64,000 nucleotides of DNA from Gammaproteobacteria bacterium. GTDB taxonomy: Bacteria; Pseudomonadota; Gammaproteobacteria; Steroidobacterales; GCA-2729495. Shown in pieces: positions 35,609-64,000 of the stretch (position 1 is the first letter of the stretch; the number at the start of each line of letters is the position of its first letter). The stretch is from positions 62,309 to 126,308 of the forward strand of contig JAUHYQ010000007.1 in NCBI GenBank assembly GCA_030426355.1, written 5' to 3'. The notes under the pieces were generated by a model. The model made no database searches. It had not been told where the DNA came from and worked only from the letters and a program-made list of their open reading frames with translations. The position numbers and the translations under genes are program-made.

Positions 35609-38918
<3,310 letters not shown>

Positions 38919-56769: not shown

Positions 56770-57444
56770 TTATTTCGCCCCGTACAGGTAGTTCATATCG
56801 GGCTTCTCGGTAGCAAAGTAGTGAACCCATATATAGGCGTGACTGAAGGCGGCAACGACCAACGCCGCGAGCGAGTTCAAGCCAATAGAGATAGCCCAGA
56901 ACAGAAAGAACGCATAGAGGTACATTCCGTTACTGGTAAAGCGAAATATGCCCTCTGAGACTAATGGCATCTCGCGGTAGGCGGGGTCGAAGTGGTCAGC
57001 GCCAGCTGCCCTTATTAATCCAAAGTACCGTTTCACACTGTACATTGCGTACAGACCGATGACTAAGAGCACGGTCGTCAAAATAGCTCGGGGAACAGTC
57101 GGCAGGTTCAGGCTGCCCCGATCTGCCCAACCCAAGGTGAATAATGTGACAAAGCGGCCGCCAAACAGAATAAAAAAAAGCGTTACGTAACTGCGCATGC
57201 TTGATCGTTCGCCTTCTAAACCAGCGCGCAGTTGCAGCCTCCACACGATCCACACAAATATCTGGTGAATTATCGGTACCGCAATGGCCAGCCAGAAAAG
57301 AAATGGGTTGGGTGTGTCAATATTGCTCCACGTCAATGCAACCCAGGCCAACAGAACGGCAAGCCCGAAAAAATGGATTCCCTGTCCATGCCATAGACCC
57401 GGTGGCAACGGCTTTTTTGGTGCTTCTGAACTCTCCACAGTCAT
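56770..57444 (-). CDS. membrane methyltransferase of the PEMT/ICMT family
   Basis: 224 aa with 5-6 TM segments. C-terminal GIFRFTSNGMY ... EKPDMNYLYG resembles phospholipid or isoprenylcysteine methyltransferases. Confidence 0.55.
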   Translation of the reverse strand: MTVESSEAPKKPLPPGLWHGQGIHFFGLAVLLAWVALTWSNIDTPNPFLFWLAIAVPIIHQIFVWIVWRLQLRAGLEGERSSMRSYVTLFFILFGGRFVTLFTLGWADRGSLNLPTVPRAILTTVLLVIGLYAMYSVKRYFGLIRAAGADHFDPAYREMPLVSEGIFRFTSNGMYLYAFFLFWAISIGLNSLAALVVAAFSHAYIWVHYFATEKPDMNYLYGAK

Positions 57445-57546
57445 TGCACCTCAAAATAGGCTGTGAACGCCGGTTTCATGGGCTAGGTTAATATGTTTCA
57501 GCAGCGGAGCGGGGCGTATTCGCAGCGCTGCGATTGGTGCAAAAAA

Positions 57547-57593
57547 TGGTGGGCCCGGTAGGACTCGAACCTGGGACCAAGGGATTATGAGTC
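57547..57593 (-). pseudogene. 3' fragment of a tRNA-Met/Ile2 (CAU) gene; candidate island att site
   Basis: The minus strand reads CTCATAATCCCTTGGTCCCAGGTTCGAGTCCTACCGGGCCCACCA (anticodon loop to CCA). No matching 5' acceptor strand or D-arm lies upstream, and the T-stem pairs at only 3 of 5 positions. Confidence 0.6.
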
Positions 57594-57788
57594 GTAGTCA
57601 CCGCGATTTTTCGAACTATAACAGTCAATCACCAGCCATCGTTGACTACTGTAATCTGCGCTCTGAAGTAAGGCAAGCAGTGGCTTTCAGGCGATCGTTG
57701 AATAACAACTGTAAATAGTTAGTTTCTGCGAATTACTGCCTATAGCTGACGATATCAGCCGGCTCTGCGGTAAGAAGACGGTAAGAGT

Positions 57789-58436
57789 TCAGTAATAAAG
57801 TGGAATAAATACTGGGCTAGTGCGCACTGGCACATCACTTTGCTCCCAAGGCCCTTCAGGCACATCTGCCGGCCGAAATCGATCCTCAGGAATAAGACGG
57901 AAGCGCGATTTTAGCCTCTCGGTATCCTCTACATATCTTGAACGAATTGTGACCTCTACATTATTGAACCGATTGCCGAACTTGTTCGATCCAATATCGA
58001 AATCAAATTGAAAATTCCCAAGGTACAAAAACTCGTCTTCTCTCACGCGAATTTCTATCGGAATTAGCTCGCTCTTAGGTATCGCCCCAGATGGATCGAG
58101 AGCAACCGACCACCAATCTAGCTGGTATGTGTCGACTGGCAGTTGTAGTAGAAATATGGCGTATTCTTGATCCGGGTATTTCGGATCATGAGATATATTG
58201 GTTTTCGCAAACATATTCCCCGGCGGCGCAAGTCTGCCGCAATAAGATCCAGCGATATCATCGCGTTCGTCGAGGCAGACAAACGTAAAAGTCTTCCCGT
58301 TTGCAGGTTGACTTATGGTTCCATAAACATAGCCAACGCCGATAGTAGGCTCAAAAGTGTAATCTTCATCCTGCAGCCCGAATTTGCTGAATTGGTTCGT
58401 GCAAGCTGACAGTCCTAGTATCACGACAAATACCAT
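57789..58436 (-). CDS. lipoprotein of unknown function
   Basis: The ATG at 58436 follows GGGGAGG. Lipobox ILGLSAC. The track ORF's TTG start at 58571 would read through attC Z. Confidence 0.55.
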   Translation of the reverse strand: MVFVVILGLSACTNQFSKFGLQDEDYTFEPTIGVGYVYGTISQPANGKTFTFVCLDERDDIAGSYCGRLAPPGNMFAKTNISHDPKYPDQEYAIFLLQLPVDTYQLDWWSVALDPSGAIPKSELIPIEIRVREDEFLYLGNFQFDFDIGSNKFGNRFNNVEVTIRSRYVEDTERLKSRFRLIPEDRFRPADVPEGPWEQSDVPVRTSPVFIPLYY

Positions 58437-58455
58437 AACTAGCCTCCCCAAAGCC

Positions 58456-58536
58456 CGAGAACGCCCTGGGTAGGAGCGGCTTGTGAAGCCAGGCGTCTGG
58501 CACGCGTAGCGTGTGCATTGCCCGAACTGGTTAACT
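58456..58536 (-). repeat. attC-like site Z (81 nt, divergent)
   Basis: CGAGAAC-GCC-CTGGGTA ... TTGCCCGAA-CTG-GTTAACT. The right end is complementary to the left end of site A. Confidence 0.65.
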
Positions 58537-58572
58537 GCTTTGGCTGCTTGCACAACTATTTGCACGGTCAAA

Positions 58573-58794
58573 CTAGCCCCCTTTCTTCATCATCAACCAC
58601 AGCGTTAGAAATACTTTTGAAGGCAGTAGCAATATCAATCCCGTGCCAGCAACTGCGGATATGATCTTAATGCCCTTCATTCCCATTTCATTGTGGAGGT
58701 CCGCAAATACGACCAAATAGATGGCGACTAAAACGAGCCCTAGCCCTAGAAACATGGCACATGTAAGTGCGCGCTTTAGTGTTGCATCCTTCAT
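58573..58794 (-). CDS. cassette ORF: 73-aa two-TM protein
   Basis: MKDATLKRALTCAMFLGLGLVLVAIYLVVF... The ATG is 6 nt from the GTTAACT core. Confidence 0.45.
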   Translation of the reverse strand: MKDATLKRALTCAMFLGLGLVLVAIYLVVFADLHNEMGMKGIKIISAVAGTGLILLLPSKVFLTLWLMMKKGG

Positions 58795-58800
58795 TTACGC

Positions 58801-58881
58801 AGTTAACGCCTTGGGCAAAGGGCGCGGGCGAAGCCGCGTCCAGCACCGCAGGTGCGAGCTGTCTTGACTGACTGGTTAAGC
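58801..58881 (-). repeat. attC-like site A (81 nt, divergent L boxes)
   Basis: AGTTAAC-GCC-TTGGGCA ... CTG-GTTAAGC. The higA-like stop codon (58876-58878) lies inside the right-end core. Confidence 0.65.
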
Positions 58882-59136
58882 GGCCGATTCAACTGCTATA
58901 TCCCAACCTGGAAATACAAGCACCGCAGGATGACAACCCAGTGCACGAGCCAAATTCTTGGATCGTTCCACTCCTAGACTAATTCGATCGTTTTCAATGG
59001 CCGATATAGTTGATTGCGGCATCCCGGCGAGTTTAGCCAGCTCATTCTGACTCAGCTCCTGCAGCTCGCGCAGAATCCTGACCGACTCGCCCGGCGTAAC
59101 CTCAATCGACTTTTTAGCTTTTCGGAACTCACTCAT
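58876..59136 (-). CDS. XRE-family HTH antitoxin (HigA-like)
   Basis: 86 aa. HTH LSQNELAKLAGMPQSTISAIENDR. It has a 1-nt overlap (TAATG) with the toxin gene. Confidence 0.8.
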   Translation of the reverse strand: MSEFRKAKKSIEVTPGESVRILRELQELSQNELAKLAGMPQSTISAIENDRISLGVERSKNLARALGCHPAVLVFPGWDIAVESAA

Positions 59137-59420
59137 TAGGATTTCCTCCGATAATCATGTGCTGTTAGATCAAATACCTTAACAACAACGTGTTGTTCCT
59201 CCACCAGATATATAACGCGATACTGGTTTCCCAGGCGGGAAGAACGGTGACCTTTCCATTCTCCTATAAGCGGTTCATCTCTAAAGCCCTTGATACGTCG
59301 CAGACCCTGGGGTCCTGAAATTGCGACGATATCTTTCCACTTCTCATATCGCTTCAAAATATCGGCAGGTGTCTTTGGAATGCGCCTAACGACGCGGCGA
59401 TGCTCAAATACCTGCCACAT
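59136..59420 (-). CDS. RelE/ParE-superfamily toxin (HigB-like; toxin gene first)
   Basis: 94 aa. The WKGHRSSRLGNQYRVIYLVEEQHVVVKVFDLTAHDY pattern is typical of RelE-fold toxins. Confidence 0.8.
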   Translation of the reverse strand: MWQVFEHRRVVRRIPKTPADILKRYEKWKDIVAISGPQGLRRIKGFRDEPLIGEWKGHRSSRLGNQYRVIYLVEEQHVVVKVFDLTAHDYRRKS

Positions 59421-59429
59421 ACTGAAAAG

Positions 59430-59458
59430 AGTATATATACTGTATTTGGTATGTCAAG
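59430..59458 (-). promoter_or_regulatory. sigma70-type promoter with palindromic operator for the TA cassette
   Basis: On the minus strand: TTGACA (59458-53), 17 nt, then TATACT (59435-30). The perfect 12-bp palindrome AGTATATATACT (59430-59441) covers the -10. Confidence 0.6.
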
Positions 59459-59480
59459 CGCCTAAACTGCAAATAAGGCC

Positions 59481-59561
59481 GCTTAACGCCTTGGGCAGGG
59501 GCGGCTGGCGAAGCCAGACGTCCCGCTCGCGAAGCGAGCCCATTGCCCCAACTGGTTACGT
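59481..59561 (-). repeat. attC-like site B (81 nt)
   Basis: GCTTAAC-GCC-TTGGGCA ... TGCCCCAA-CTG-GTTACGT, with two internal GAA-loop hairpins. Confidence 0.8.
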
Positions 59562-59579
59562 GTGCGCACTCGACTTTAC

Positions 59580-59816
59580 CTAGTTCTCGGGTAGGGCATC
59601 AAACTCTGCCTTTTTGGACTCAAACCATTGCTGCATTTTTTCGGGTTCTTGCATGAGTTCTCGCATCTTATTCATCGCTTCCAGATGTGGAGCGTCTTGT
59701 TTTTGATGCATCTCCATTCCATGCTTTTGGCTCAATTCCGCCATTTCCTCGAAGGTGTCGGCATGAAACTCTTCGTCGCACGCACCGCCTAGCTGTCTGC
59801 AATTCATAGTTTTCAT
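59580..59816 (-). CDS. cassette ORF: DUF1059-like small protein
   Basis: The ATG at 59816 follows AAGGAG. MKTMNCRQLGGACDEEFHADTFEEMAELSQKHGMEMH. The track ORF to 59918 runs into attC C. Confidence 0.65.
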   Translation of the reverse strand: MKTMNCRQLGGACDEEFHADTFEEMAELSQKHGMEMHQKQDAPHLEAMNKMRELMQEPEKMQQWFESKKAEFDALPEN

Positions 59817-59846
59817 ATCGTGCTCCTTGATTGAGCTACTTAGTAC

Positions 59847-59927
59847 ACGTAACGCCTGTGGCTGGGGCGCAGCGCAAAGCGCTGCGTCCAGCGAGCGGAG
59901 CGAGCGAACAGACCACACTGGTTATAT
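59847..59927 (-). repeat. attC-like site C (81 nt)
   Basis: ACGTAAC-GCC-TGTGGCTG ... CAGACCACA-CTG-GTTATAT. Confidence 0.8.
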
Positions 59928-60650
59928 TTCATCACTAACGCATGCCCTTACAAAACTCACGCCCAACTCTGTAATACATATGGACTCATATCCGGCGTCG
60001 CTTGTCGGCGATATCCCTCCCACTGATATCCCGGGTGTCCTCAGAACAGCAGAACAAACACAACGCACTCGCATCAAATTGTCTACCGATAATTCATACT
60101 CTCTCGGAGAAGCAGGAAGTACTTTGACAATCTCCTCTCGAGGAAAAGAAATATGGGTTGGCGAATGATCGCTCGGGACCTCATGTTCTTTGAGGTAGTT
60201 TCTGTAACTGTTATAGATCAGCTCAAGTAGCCGAACATCTTCAATTTCCAACTGCTTGATGATATCGATGAACGCGGATCGAACAGGTGTTCCACCAGCC
60301 GAATTCTGAGCGGATGAAATTAGCCGAGCCCAGAGGTCTTGGAGCGAATCACTTTCTTCTATATAAGCATTCTCCAAGGCTGGAATTGCCAGCTTCAGCG
60401 GCACAGGTCGCTCGTCCCCTTCGATCCCGCGCGACCGGTTTAATTCATTAACCCGATCTGCTAAGCGTGCCGCGCGCTCCAAACGAACGTACTTCAGCTT
60501 GTCATCTACAATGCCGGAAGCGGTTTCAAGAGGCTTTCCGATAACTTTAGAAAGGAAACCGCCGAGCTTTTCTGCAACATCTAAAGCTTTACCAGTCGCT
60601 TTTGCTACCTCAGCCGTAGAATTTGTAGGAGGGTCTTCTTGGCTGCTCAA
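59922..60650 (-). CDS. cassette ORF: Abi-alpha (DUF4393)-like abortive-infection protein
   Basis: The pattern GKPLETASGIVDDKLKYVRLERAARL ... PVPLKLAIPALENAYIEESDSLQDLWARLISSA ... FIDIIKQLEIEDVRLLELIY matches my recollection of Abi_alpha. The start is placed at the TTG at 60650 because the ATG at 60695 lies inside attC D. The stop TAA lies inside the attC C core. Confidence 0.6.
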   Translation of the reverse strand: MSSQEDPPTNSTAEVAKATGKALDVAEKLGGFLSKVIGKPLETASGIVDDKLKYVRLERAARLADRVNELNRSRGIEGDERPVPLKLAIPALENAYIEESDSLQDLWARLISSAQNSAGGTPVRSAFIDIIKQLEIEDVRLLELIYNSYRNYLKEHEVPSDHSPTHISFPREEIVKVLPASPREYELSVDNLMRVRCVCSAVLRTPGISVGGISPTSDAGYESICITELGVSFVRACVSDEI

Positions 60651-60668
60651 TGTTGCACCCCGAGCGAA

Positions 60669-60749
60669 ATATAACGCCTTGGGCACGGGCGGCACGCGAA
60701 GCGTGGCGTCCGGCGAGCGCAGCGAGCATCTTGCCCCAACTGGTTAGGT
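60669..60749 (-). repeat. attC-like site D (81 nt)
   Basis: ATATAAC-GCC-TTGGGCA ... TTGCCCCAA-CTG-GTTAGGT. Confidence 0.8.
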
Positions 60750-61109
60750 TTCAAATTCACTATGTACTCGTGGATGCCTAAGAAAAATAACGATACCCGA
60801 ATTGAATAAGAATATGAAAAGCTCAATTAGCCCAGCAGAGATACCAGTATCCGCCATCACTATAGCGACCAAGGCAGACGCAGCACGTATAGCAGCTAGC
60901 GCCGCAAATACGATCATGGCCCAGGAAGCGGGTTTCCAACGAATGGCAAGGCCCCACGCAACTGCAATAGCCATAGTGCCGAGTGACCCTGAAACTACGT
61001 ATCCTGTTGGGTTTGGTTCAACATACGAGCCATAAGCGAGCCAAAATAAATTGACTGCTGCCAGCAAGTTGTAAGCGATGATTACATAGAGCCCGTATCG
61101 AACGTTCAA
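60744..61109 (-). CDS. cassette ORF: 121-aa four-TM protein
   Basis: TTG start 7 nt after GTTAGGT, and the stop lies inside the attC D core. Hydrophobic throughout. Confidence 0.45.
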   Translation of the reverse strand: MNVRYGLYVIIAYNLLAAVNLFWLAYGSYVEPNPTGYVVSGSLGTMAIAVAWGLAIRWKPASWAMIVFAALAAIRAASALVAIVMADTGISAGLIELFIFLFNSGIVIFLRHPRVHSEFET

Positions 61110-61116
61110 TGCAGAA

Positions 61117-61197
61117 ACCTAACGCCTTGGGCAGGGGCGGCTGGCGAAGCCAGGCGTCCGGCGAGCGCAGCGAGCGAATTGGCCCAACTGGTTAGGT
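61117..61197 (-). repeat. attC-like site E (81 nt)
   Basis: ACCTAAC-GCC-TTGGGCA ... TTGGCCCAA-CTG-GTTAGGT, with an unpaired G in the right-hand L box. Confidence 0.8.
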
Positions 61198-61488
61198 GGC
61201 GTTTTTAAGAATGCGTTCATTTATGTAGTTACACCATTGGCTTGATTCTCGAGGAGGCACGGAAGGATCGTTTCGTAGCCCCATCTTAAACTCAACAACG
61301 GAGCGCCACTCTAGGGATCCGATATCTGGCCCATGCCCTTGCCCATCACCCGTTGAGATTTGATCTTCGATTACTTGATACCAATCGTTCGTGCAGGCTT
61401 GGCTCAAGGTTCGATCGTCGGTGGTGCGAGCGCAGCCAAAATTGCCCAAGCAAATAAAACCAAGAAGAATCCCAATTACTCGCCGCAT
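61192..61488 (-). CDS. cassette ORF: 98-aa putative lipoprotein
   Basis: MRRVIGILLGFICLGNFGC. The ATG lies 10 nt after GTTAGGTGG, and the stop lies inside the attC E core. Confidence 0.5.
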   Translation of the reverse strand: MRRVIGILLGFICLGNFGCARTTDDRTLSQACTNDWYQVIEDQISTGDGQGHGPDIGSLEWRSVVEFKMGLRNDPSVPPRESSQWCNYINERILKNAT

Positions 61489-61498
61489 GGATTAAGCC

Positions 61499-61579
61499 AC
61501 CTAACGCCTTGGGCACGGGCGGCTGGCGAAGCCAGACGTCCCGCTCGCGAAGCGAGCCCTTTGCCCCAACTGGTTATGT
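61499..61579 (-). repeat. attC-like site F (81 nt)
   Basis: ACCTAAC-GCC-TTGGGCA ... TTGCCCCAA-CTG-GTTATGT. It is nearly identical to site B internally. Confidence 0.8.
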
Positions 61580-61975
61580 GCCATTTTGCGAGATTCCCCA
61601 AATAATGTCGACTAAGCCTATTGGTACAAAAATTGAAACCGCGGTAAGCACAAAAAAGTAGCAGCGATCCCAAAACAAACCGCTTCCAAAATTGAACACC
61701 ACATCCCTTGGCATGTGGCCTATATAGCGCCGGAAAAACCGAGCTAACAAAATAGCAAATAGAAATTGAGCCAGAGGCGAACAGTAAAATATAACTTCGC
61801 CCGGATGAAGCGCGCCGGCATCCAAACGGACCAGCCCACTTATAGCGGAGAAAGTGGCAAGCCCTCCAAACAGTATTAAGCCGCGACTATCGCCAATGAG
61901 AAAATTGTGGGCTGGCGGAAACAGCATGTATGAACCGGGGAATACAAGAGGGATAAATATGGGATCGAATTTCAA
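61574..61975 (-). CDS. cassette ORF: 133-aa membrane protein
   Basis: The TTG at 61975 is preceded by GGAG at -9, and the stop lies inside the attC F core. 4 TM segments. Confidence 0.45.
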   Translation of the reverse strand: MKFDPIFIPLVFPGSYMLFPPAHNFLIGDSRGLILFGGLATFSAISGLVRLDAGALHPGEVIFYCSPLAQFLFAILLARFFRRYIGHMPRDVVFNFGSGLFWDRCYFFVLTAVSIFVPIGLVDIIWGISQNGT

Positions 61976-61990
61976 CGAATTCGCTCCGGC

Positions 61991-62116
61991 ACATAACGCC
62001 TTGGGCAGAGGCGCGGCGAAAGCGGCGCGGTCGCTGCAGACTGTCCAGCGCAGAGGACGCGCCGCTTTTGGCGCGTCCGGCGACCGAAGGGAGCGAATTG
62101 CCCCAACTGGTTAGGT
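61991..62116 (-). repeat. attC-like site G (126 nt, long variable region)
   Basis: ACATAAC-GCC-TTGGGCA ... TTGCCCCAA-CTG-GTTAGGT. It has the same R/L boxes as the others and a 45-nt longer GC-rich centre. Confidence 0.75.
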
Positions 62117-62137
62117 GTCATAACCTTTTCACCTAAG

Positions 62138-62572
62138 CTAGTGTGATCGGATCTCTTGCGATACTTCGCCATTTTCAATCCACGCATACACTACTGCGCC
62201 TTTACCAGCCACAAGCGGGGCTGATTTGTCACTGTCGCAATTCAGATAGTCTACCAACAACGAATACGAGACTTCATCCCCATCAAATACGGGCACATAG
62301 ATTTCCGGGCCTTTCTGTGCGATTTCACCGTCTGCCCTGGAAAAGACCATAGGTTTATCGACCGTTAGTTGATATTCGCCAAAATTCACCTGCGCAGCTG
62401 ACACGACACAGTTCGACCGATTGAATATCCTCACATATACACGATCGGGATCAACTACTGTATCAATTAAGATTGCCAATCCCACCGCGAACGCGGTTGC
62501 TACAAATGCGACCGCAATTGAGATGACAAGTACGCGTCCCAAAAAGGCCAGAACGCTTTGTATATTGGCCAT
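62138..62572 (-). CDS. first cassette ORF: 144-aa N-terminally anchored protein
   Basis: The ATG at 62572 gives MANIQSVLAFLGRVLVISIAVAFVATAFAVGLAILI. The track ORF to 62641 crosses the cassette boundary. Confidence 0.45.
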   Translation of the reverse strand: MANIQSVLAFLGRVLVISIAVAFVATAFAVGLAILIDTVVDPDRVYVRIFNRSNCVVSAAQVNFGEYQLTVDKPMVFSRADGEIAQKGPEIYVPVFDGDEVSYSLLVDYLNCDSDKSAPLVAGKGAVVYAWIENGEVSQEIRSH

Positions 62573-62575
62573 TAC

Positions 62576-62582
62576 ACCTAAC
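62576..62582 (-). repeat. orphan core site (GTTAGGT on the minus strand) marking the array boundary
   Basis: ACCTAAC is complementary to the right end of attC G, but no attC body follows it. Confidence 0.6.
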
Positions 62583-62800
62583 AGCTTATTAATGTGAAAC
62601 GGATATTGATCTTGGAATAGCACAAAGCAATAGGCCCCCAAAAGCCGTGATCATTACCAACTAAACTACTAACAGCGTTGAACACGGTCAATGTGCCTGA
62701 GAACAATAGACCGCAACTGAAGCCAGAGTATTTGTTCCTTATTTGGTGGTTTTCTGAAAATGCCAGCTGGGCGGGGTTTGATAAATAGTTATCAATCGCC

Positions 62801-63406
62801 TCAGGCTTCCTTTCGTTTCATCCAGCCCAAACCGAGCAGAGCCGAGCCAAACAGCCATGCGGCGGCGGGGATGGGGACGACAGTCGAATAGGTCCAGACA
62901 CCCGGAGACGCTATTACAGAGGCGCCATCCTGGCTGGAGAGTTTGCACCCGCCCGTGGGCCACTCCTCTATGCATTCCGAAATGCCCACGATATCGAAAA
63001 TATTGTCGGTGCTAATTTGCATACTCTGATCGCCCACCGCCGCATAGCCGCCGGTGTCGGCCATTGCTGTAAAAGTCCAGGTGATAATGTCGCCGGAAGC
63101 ATTGATAGCGAAGCTGGCATTGACCAAAGTCGAATTCAAATGCGTGAGGTTGGTGCGTCCATCAAACAATGTGTACTCCAGAATCGAGGCGCTAATGTCT
63201 GTCACTGGCATTGGGGTGAGAGCATCGGCCACCAGAAAACTGCCGCTAATGCTCATGGATGTATCGTAGGCGCCAGCCGGCACCGATGGATCGCTTACGG
63301 AAGTGAAATTATTGCCGGTGTATTGATAGAGGGTCGCCGCGCTCACCGGAGCAATGATGCCGAACGCTGCGATCATCGCCACCGCGGCCATAAATAGAGT
63401 TCTCAT
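62801..63406 (-). CDS. secreted protein with a VPLPA/PEP-CTERM-type C-terminal sorting signal
   Basis: The ATG at 63406 follows GGGGGA. Signal peptide MRTLFMAAVAMIAAFGIIAPVSA. The C-terminus is VPIPAAAWLFGSALLGLGWMKRKEA. Confidence 0.7.
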   Translation of the reverse strand: MRTLFMAAVAMIAAFGIIAPVSAATLYQYTGNNFTSVSDPSVPAGAYDTSMSISGSFLVADALTPMPVTDISASILEYTLFDGRTNLTHLNSTLVNASFAINASGDIITWTFTAMADTGGYAAVGDQSMQISTDNIFDIVGISECIEEWPTGGCKLSSQDGASVIASPGVWTYSTVVPIPAAAWLFGSALLGLGWMKRKEA

Positions 63407-63797
63407 AGAATCCCCCAAACATTAATTGTTGTTATCGGCGTAAGCCGGATTCCTCAATCCGATCCTGATCGCTCACTGGTACTGAACGCTCAAGCAAACG
63501 CGACAACTATTGTGATGGGATAAAAATACGCTCCGAGAACCGAAATAACAAACCAAATATCGGAATTCCGAGAATTTCAGCGCATGGCTGCGCAAACCGC
63601 CATTGAAACGGTCCCAACGAATGCAGGTGCGTCACTCACGAAGCCAGGAACGATGGCCGATGACCAAAGCCTGAGTGCTGGTTCTCATGAATCGCGGCCT
63701 TGATGTGTGAGGTGCCTCACAGTCACAAGCCCGCCGGAACGGCAAAATTCCTGTGTTTGACATAAAGCCGCCGGTGGGTCCGGTAAGGGAGGCTTCG

Positions 63798-64000
63798 ATG
63801 GAGACCAAGCGCATCAACTGGCTTTCACTATTAGCATTTTTTGTCCCGCTGCTCGCTTTTTCCGAGGTGGCTTCTGGCAGCTCTCCTCTGGCAATTCCAG
63901 ACGGCAAGCGCGCGTCGGCTCCGGTAACAGAGCAGCCCATTGTGGAAGTCGATTTTGCTGAAGCGCACCAGTTCTTGAGCAGCCGTCGCGACTCCGACTG
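63798..64000 (+). CDS. 5' end of a secreted-protein gene running off the window
   Basis: GGGAGG lies 7 nt upstream of the ATG. METKRINWLSLLAFFVPLLAFSEVASG. The frame is open to the window end and the ORF is absent from the track. Confidence 0.5.
   Translation, partial: METKRINWLSLLAFFVPLLAFSEVASGSSPLAIPDGKRASAPVTEQPIVEVDFAEAHQFLSSRRDSD

Follow-up and report, generated by a model that had tools for sequence, protein, structure and literature searches.

An attI-type site with a Pc-like motif heads an integrase-less cassette array on a tRNA-Met island

The locus and its cassette array

The window analysed here is a stretch of 64,000 nucleotides, C6:62309-126308 of genome G000 (11 contigs, 2.82 Mb, 99.7% complete). 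Its contig, C6, is 138,794 bp long and extends 12.5 kb beyond the window. The genomes seem to be metagenome-assembled, since the closest relative, G006, is labelled as such; both assemblies are highly contiguous. The window holds an array of gene cassettes read on the minus strand. The features of the locus are given below, with positions in the window unless a contig is named.

57547-57593, minus strand: 47-nt copy of the 3' part of tRNA-Met(CAT), 93.6% identical to the intact gene at C6:129644-129720
57789-58436, minus strand: 215-aa ORF beyond the last attC; it lacks an attC, none being found from 58456 to the tRNA fragment
58456-62116, minus strand: eight attC sites with their cassettes, from a regex scan and a covariance model (E 3e-24 to 4e-9); the sites lie at 61991-62116, 61499-61579, 61117-61197, 60669-60749, 59847-59927, 59481-59561, 58801-58881 and 58456-58536
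62575-62770, minus strand: attI-type leader, consisting of the crossover core and about 170-200 bp upstream of it, from BLASTN, multiple alignments and a sequence-only model
62576-62582, minus strand: R-box or crossover core GTTAGGT, part of the 18-mer TTAATAAGCTGTTAGGTG
62589-62644, minus strand: CTTTTGGGGG block (62644-62635), then a TTG-started 13-codon mini-ORF (62630-62589), both read in the sequence
62663-62691, minus strand: candidate Pc promoter, TTGACC-17-TAGTTT (-35 at 62691-62686, -10 at 62668-62663)
62669-62676, minus strand: upstream GCTGTTAG repeat of the core, abutting the -10 hexamer, with a GTT motif kept at this column in nearly all heads
62801-63418, minus strand: VPLPA-CTERM protein gene (TIGR03370, 25.9 bits; cut-off 25.35)

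The initial annotation of this DNA placed the start of the first cassette at a GTTAGGT on the minus strand (62582-62576), and the core is read there. It is followed by TAATG, the start of cassette 1, with the ATG about 3 nt beyond the core. From the alignments described below, strand exchange is expected between G62582 and T62581. The covariance model, built from 24 attC sites of G000, matched no attC in 62583-64000, in agreement with the annotation's statement that no attC body lies beyond the core. No RNA family was matched in 57000-64000 (Rfam, E≤1).

The array cassettes include Abi_alpha and a HigB-like/HTH_3 pair. Among sigma-70 matches in the array, only TTGACA-16-TATACT (11/12), upstream of this pair at 59430-59457 on the minus strand, comes near the consensus, and the cassette has a 75%-identical counterpart in the tRNA-Met array of G006. 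No copies of the window array's cassettes were found elsewhere in G000. The last attC has a non-canonical R' (GTTCTCG). The 215-aa ORF beyond it, for which no Pfam or NCBIfam family was matched, is probably DNA that originally lay downstream of an empty attI, given the standard geometry of attI x attC insertion.

[quoted passage not shown] The next gene to the right encodes a signal-peptide protein of about 1,170-1,190 aa (the GTG frame gives 1,189 aa and the first ATG 1,174 aa) with no recognised family. The TIGR03370 match and the signal peptide agree with the right-hand neighbours named in the annotation, a VPLPA-CTERM gene and a secreted-protein gene. The array head on contig C8 likewise follows VPLPA-type genes, three in tandem on the strand of its array (G000:C8:110042-111856).

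To the left of the array, the 47-nt tRNA fragment corresponds to C6:119855-119901 in contig coordinates. The intact tRNA-Met(CAT) gene lies outside the window, at window-equivalent 67336-67412; it was absent from a default whole-genome ARAGORN run and was listed by a relaxed run (-ps90/-ps95). No full tRNA was found inside the window. Synteny with G006 is kept on the left flank (a PEMT-like gene) and on the right flank, which starts at tRNA-Met (81% identity over 6.3 kb). In G006 the tRNA is followed by GCGAATACGCCCC, a motif that comes after the tRNA fragment in G000. The tRNA repeat, the displaced ancestral flank and the synteny with G006 together indicate that a 9.7-kb segment, C6:119902-129643, was inserted in the 3' end of the tRNA; in window coordinates it runs from 57594 to beyond 64000. 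GC content is 0.47-0.53 inside the insertion, compared with 0.57 outside. The insertion contains, in order, the gene for the 1,170-1,190-aa protein, the VPLPA-CTERM gene, the attI-type head, the eight cassettes and the 215-aa ORF. No recombinase was found in C6:119902-129643, and its large ORFs match no recombinase family. The tRNA fragment that had been noted to the left of the array is therefore present, and is in addition one end of an insertion that holds the whole array.

In G006, a head and an array begin about 100 bp after its tRNA-Met. This head is of a different type (55% identity) and thus arrived independently at the same hotspot. No recombinases were found in the syntenic G006 locus. 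Within G000, contig C4 has a tRNA-Arg(ACG) gene with an attI-type head about 190 bp beyond it and three or more cassettes behind that head (G000:C4:165276-170526). At the far side lies an exact 45-nt repeat of the tRNA-Arg 3' end, so that the segment forms a 5.1-kb integrase-less island of a design like that in the window. The C8 head lies downstream of tRNA-Asn. At G000:C5:324333-339306 there are two tandem islands with exact 42- and 45-nt repeats of tRNA-Pro(CGG); their attC arrays are on the opposite strand and have no recognisable head, and similar sequences lie next to each repeat. Beyond the leader, attC sites and the VPLPA C-terminus, no shared backbone was found among the tRNA-linked islands.

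The leader at the array head and its candidate promoter

The 340 bp upstream of cassette 1 were used as a BLAST query against G000. The window leader matched C8:109743-109940 with 87% identity over 198 bp and C4:165547-165706 with 80% identity over 161 bp (BLASTN), and each of these matches lies directly upstream of another attC array without intI. The leader also matched the attI that adjoins the integrase gene on contig C3, where 35 of 43 positions are identical (C3:196478-196520). The 18-bp crossover region TTAATAAGCTGTTAGGTG is the same in both; the C3 attI ends in CATTTAATAAGCTGTTAGGTG, and the equivalent end in the window is CACATTAATAAGCTGTTAGGTG. Across the aligned heads, the crossover block, a (G)ATCAATA block, a TTTC block, CTTTTGGGGG and TTGACC are conserved, as is a second GCTGTTAG about 90 nt upstream.

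The pairwise identities of the aligned heads are 87% for C6 and C8, 76% for C6 and C4, and about 58-59% for each of C6, C8 and C4 with the C3 attI. The rplQ-linked and G006:C2 heads are 45-55% identical to all others. Given this spread, the integrase-less heads are not one recent family that arose from a single deletion. Homology among the C6, C8 and C4 heads ends precisely behind GCTGTTA, and an unrelated cassette comes first behind each of them. At the other end, the C6, C8, C4 and G006:C2 heads begin near the same GAACA motif, with no intI or Pint upstream. A search for inverted repeats or a transposon-like end at this 5' boundary (GGAACAAATACTC) gave only noise.

By homology with the intI-linked attI, window 62575-62770 on the minus strand is an attI-type site. 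A GTTRRRY core lies at the 5' boundary of cassette 1, with the cassette and its attC next to it. The initial annotation had seen no attI in view and had called the core an orphan, a description that does not hold now that the 170-200 bp upstream are found to be homologous to attI regions.

On that earlier description, the array would have no attI at all. Its cassettes could then have been inserted by IntI at a secondary, attG-type GTT, or an existing array could have been split by rearrangement, with an orphan core left behind. Both routes are documented for CALINs and SALINs (PMC4889954; bioRxiv 10.1101/2022.09.11.507474), and the C5 arrays of G000 have no recognisable head. The upstream 170-200 bp of the window array, however, are homologous to the intI-linked attI and to other array heads. 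This contradicts such an origin, since neither a random attG nor an array broken internally would be preceded by an attI homologue. We give an array without an attI almost no credence. Secondary-site insertion was considered as a candidate in its own right and was rejected since the upstream flank is the repeated attI-type leader.

A different reading of the same region is that the conserved leader is no recombination site. It would instead be an element common to these loci, such as a 5' regulatory region, leader peptide or small RNA, and GTTAGGT would merely be part of cassette 1. The leader contains a conserved GGGGG block and a mini-ORF, and its upstream neighbours differ between heads, so that a portable regulatory module is conceivable. 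The mini-ORF ends in TAA, 6 nt (62588-62583) short of the crossover G at 62582, and the block and the frame (13 codons, TTG start) are common to C6, C8 and C4. The C3 attI has GGGGGAAG-N7-ATG and a 15-codon ORF that ends at the TAG of GTTAGG. Against a purely regulatory element, there is no Rfam match for the leader, its end in every case falls on the G|TT at which a first cassette starts, and it sits between intI and array in three genomes. We therefore regard this reading as very improbable. A partial regulatory role is compatible with an attI-type site and so does not make a true rival. The mini-ORF recalls, as we see it, ORF-11 of attI1, and might provide translational coupling into cassettes that lack their own start signals. 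Likewise, the upstream GCTGTTAG repeat is presumably comparable to DR1/DR2 of attI1, and by this analogy is possibly a DR-type IntI binding site.

The initial annotation had also proposed a promoter reading into the array, and its hexamers, 17-nt spacer and coordinates are all as described. The predicted start lies near 62656, about 74 nt upstream of the crossover. The match to consensus is 5/6 in the -35 and 3/6 in the -10, and it fails a strict consensus scan. Matches of this quality occur at about 0.4 per kb per strand, with 0.09 expected in 220 bp. The match is thus not above chance alone, and its support comes from conservation. TTGACC-N17-TAnnTT is found at the same columns in six heads: C6, C8 and C4 (TAGTTT), C3 and G006:C5 (TAACTT), and G010:C109 (TACCTT). 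In these six heads the spacers and flanks diverge, with 13-40% divergence elsewhere. Two other head types do not have the motif.

As regards the proposed role as a Pc, the motif is conserved in paralogous heads and is at the expected position of a chromosomal Pc, and the match itself is weak. In Vibrio cholerae, the Pc start was measured 65 bp from the crossover (PMC3948777). On sequence conservation, TTGACC-17-TAGTTT is the probable Pc of the array. As the -10 abuts the GTTA repeat GCTGTTAG, conservation of the hexamers may instead reflect IntI binding. No convincing terminator was found between the VPLPA-CTERM stop (62801) and the array; the only site is a weak one of 5 pairs at 62646-62633, in the conserved leader block. 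The VPLPA-CTERM gene is co-oriented with the array, so read-through could also feed the cassettes.

Integrase inventory and turnover at the crossover

The whole genome was searched for IntI with an HMM, the check that the initial annotation had suggested, and one intact intI was found. This single intI of G000 is at C3:195223-196203, on another contig than the window. The encoded protein scores 411/410 bits with TIGR02249 (cut-off 265) and is full length with no stops; the catalytic motifs and the IntI-specific insertion can be read in its translation. The PF00589 and TIGR02249 searches of the whole genome gave no match on C6, and tblastn with the C3 IntI (E≤10) found no intI remnant or pseudogene on C6. 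These searches agree with the annotation's statement that no IntI-sized ORF lies on either side of the array, and the integrase of the genome does lie outside the window, which was one of the options it had named. It had named an intI gene with an attI next to a matching core elsewhere as the finding that would tell against its reading, and such a site exists: the C3 attI carries the crossover 18-mer of the window. Unlike in a complete integron, no intI adjoins the attI-type site and array in the window.

The attC sites of G000 are of one type, number at least 50 and form several clusters. To the one intI of this genome there are five clear attI-type heads and one weak head. Besides the heads on C3, C6, C8 and C4, the fifth is at C7:500933, downstream of rplQ. 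The sixth, at C8:181500, was found by the sequence-only model, is weak, and also precedes an attC. The intI-linked array leaves the end of contig C3 after its first one or two cassettes (C3:196204-197331), with one attC detected before the contig end (C3:196855-196950). Contigs C6 and C7 both start inside attC arrays (C6:1-8455 and C7:1-8685). Together with the C3 array running off its contig, these starts indicate that the main array is split by assembly breaks.

A sequence-only model of the leader was run over 89 genomes of the family. In the window's genus it gave six matches in G000, three in G006, two in G008, one in G010 and one weak match in G002, and the genus genomes with leader matches have at most one intI each. 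Outside the genus there was one weak match, in G069 (E = 0.005, model positions 94-170 only), near an intI-like sequence with 66% identity to the C3 intI. The model finds a site at C5:505743-505897 of G006, beside intI at 504597-505529; since this attI and the C3 attI used for training share 97% identity, it is not an independent detection. It also finds C63:37958-38123 of G008, beside intI at 36875-37807. The G008 site was absent from the training set, and it thus ties the leader family to attI independently.

Pattern searches were run in addition. The exact 23-nt pattern of the leader gave 0 matches outside the genus in genome contigs. A degenerate core pattern matched G006 and two chance sites only in genome contigs, and three chance sites without homology in metagenome contigs. 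No integrase-linked version of the C6-type head was found in these searches.

Two heads are orthologous between G000 and G006. One is linked to intI and the other to rplQ, and identity is about 97% in each case. The rplQ-linked head is integrase-less and lies at G000:C7:500771-500951 and G006:C2:479835-480013, with 97% identity in the two species. In both pairs, homology reaches up to GCTGTTA and stops exactly after AATAAGCTGTTA, and the cassettes beyond are unrelated. No recombinase was found near the rplQ-linked head in G000 or G006. A homology break exactly at the crossover of this head, with no neighbouring recombinase, points to cassette turnover at an orphan attI. A cassette that is 99.3% identical in the two species lies behind the rplQ-linked head in G006 and at C7:3916-4478 in G000. 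Breaks of this kind are what insertion or excision of cassettes by IntI at an attI should leave. The comparison suggests that IntI works in trans on heads that have no integrase next to them, and the turnover on which it rests concerns the rplQ-linked orphan head and not the head in the window.

In G008, the orphan head at C77:12335-12475 is nearly identical to the intI-linked attI of the same genome over the stretch between about 135 bp upstream (TGTTCCAG) and the crossover, beyond which the two differ. The left arm of an attI seems to have been duplicated recently here. An orphan head and an intI-linked head that are nearly identical suggest that such copies arise repeatedly.

These results bear on whether the window array is the decayed remnant of a second complete integron, one that lost its intI and left the attI and promoter as inactive relics at the head of a frozen CALIN. 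Such a history fits the lack of a cis integrase or pseudogene, the array cassettes that are unique in the genome, and the end of the array, with its non-canonical R' and a last ORF without attC; loss of intI is also one of the listed origins of CALINs (Cury et al., PMC4889954). It is harder to reconcile with the core 18-mer, in which the window head and the active-looking integron do not differ. In three paralogous heads, the core, the GATCAATA block and the promoter hexamers are retained and the remaining positions have diverged. Between species, moreover, turnover is seen precisely at the crossover of an orphan head from this family. In addition, independent deletions are not expected to end at one point, yet the C6, C8, C4 and G006:C2 heads share a 5' limit near GAACA. 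Decay of a second integron is, in our judgement, unlikely.

Proposed use of the head in trans and relation to known systems

Our preferred explanation, to which we give a probability of about 0.7, is that the window contains an attI and Pc-like head without a cis integrase, which is used in trans by the single IntI of the genome and is cargo of the tRNA-Met island. In this model, the IntI encoded on C3 would bind the window attI in trans and would insert excised cassettes at G62582|T62581. TTGACC-17-TAGTTT would transcribe the first cassettes, and transcripts from the VPLPA-CTERM gene may also read through into them. This gene, the head, the array and the gene for the 1,170-1,190-aa protein would have arrived together as the 9.7-kb integrase-less insertion. 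The case for use of the window head in trans is comparative throughout. Among the points against it, overall identity between the leader and the intI-linked attI is only about 58%, and recognition of attI by IntI is usually specific. In addition, the window cassettes have no copies elsewhere in G000, and recent shuffling that involves the array is thus not supported.

The initial annotation had assigned the array to the CALINs, and this assignment agrees with the IntegronFinder definition (at least two attC, no intI nearby). There are eight attC on the minus strand less than 4 kb apart, no intI under the 4-kb rule and no pseudogene nearby, and a complete integron is present elsewhere in the genome. 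The definition of a CALIN makes no mention of attI, and such clusters are described as out of the transcriptional reach of Pc (PMC4889954). Their accepted origins are intI loss, rearrangement and insertion at secondary sites (attG) (PMC4889954; bioRxiv 10.1101/2022.09.11.507474). Unlike a CALIN as described, the window array has its own attI homologue and a conserved Pc-like motif, and it is one of several such heads.

The layout of the window head resembles that of the V. cholerae superintegron, with an attI at the 5' edge of the first cassette, a GTTRRRY core and an attI-proximal intergenic promoter (Krin et al. 2014, PMC3948777). In V. cholerae the start was measured at 65 bp from the crossover, against about 74 nt predicted for the window. 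A sedentary chromosomal platform has the order intI-Pint/Pc-attI; in contrast, the window has neither intI nor Pint, the VPLPA-CTERM gene is in their place, and the integrase would have to act in trans. As in attG insertions and SALINs (Loot et al., bioRxiv 10.1101/2022.09.11.507474), the cassettes are located away from the integrase and are joined at G|TT. The flank of an attG is ordinary genomic DNA, whereas the flank in the window is an attI homologue that is repeated at other heads.

We take the insertion as a whole to be comparable to tRNA-integrated islands that lack their own integrase, of the cis-mobilisable-element type. It shares with tRNA islands an intact tRNA at one end, a 47-nt direct repeat at the other, a lower GC content and a displaced ancestral flank. 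It differs from them in that its cargo is an integron head with an array, and in that no integrase or excisionase was found. In the open-access text, we did not find a description of CALINs that have an attI homologue and a conserved promoter motif, occur several times per genome and lie partly on tRNA-bounded islands.

The origin and function of CALINs are debated, and they are usually explained by loss of the integrase, splitting of arrays or insertion at secondary sites, and are taken to be separated from both attI and Pc. As a broader and more tentative proposal, about which we have real doubts, one IntI in this genus might serve several scattered platforms of attI, Pc and array, some of them carried as cargo of integrase-less islands inserted in tRNA genes (tRNA-Met here and tRNA-Arg on C4), so that part of the CALINs would be working satellite platforms. 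If the integrase does act in trans at these heads, cassettes could be captured and expressed at several chromosomal places at once, and homology to attI could help to tell live platforms from remnants among the CALINs. A route by which whole platforms might move is suggested by their link with tRNA-bounded islands.
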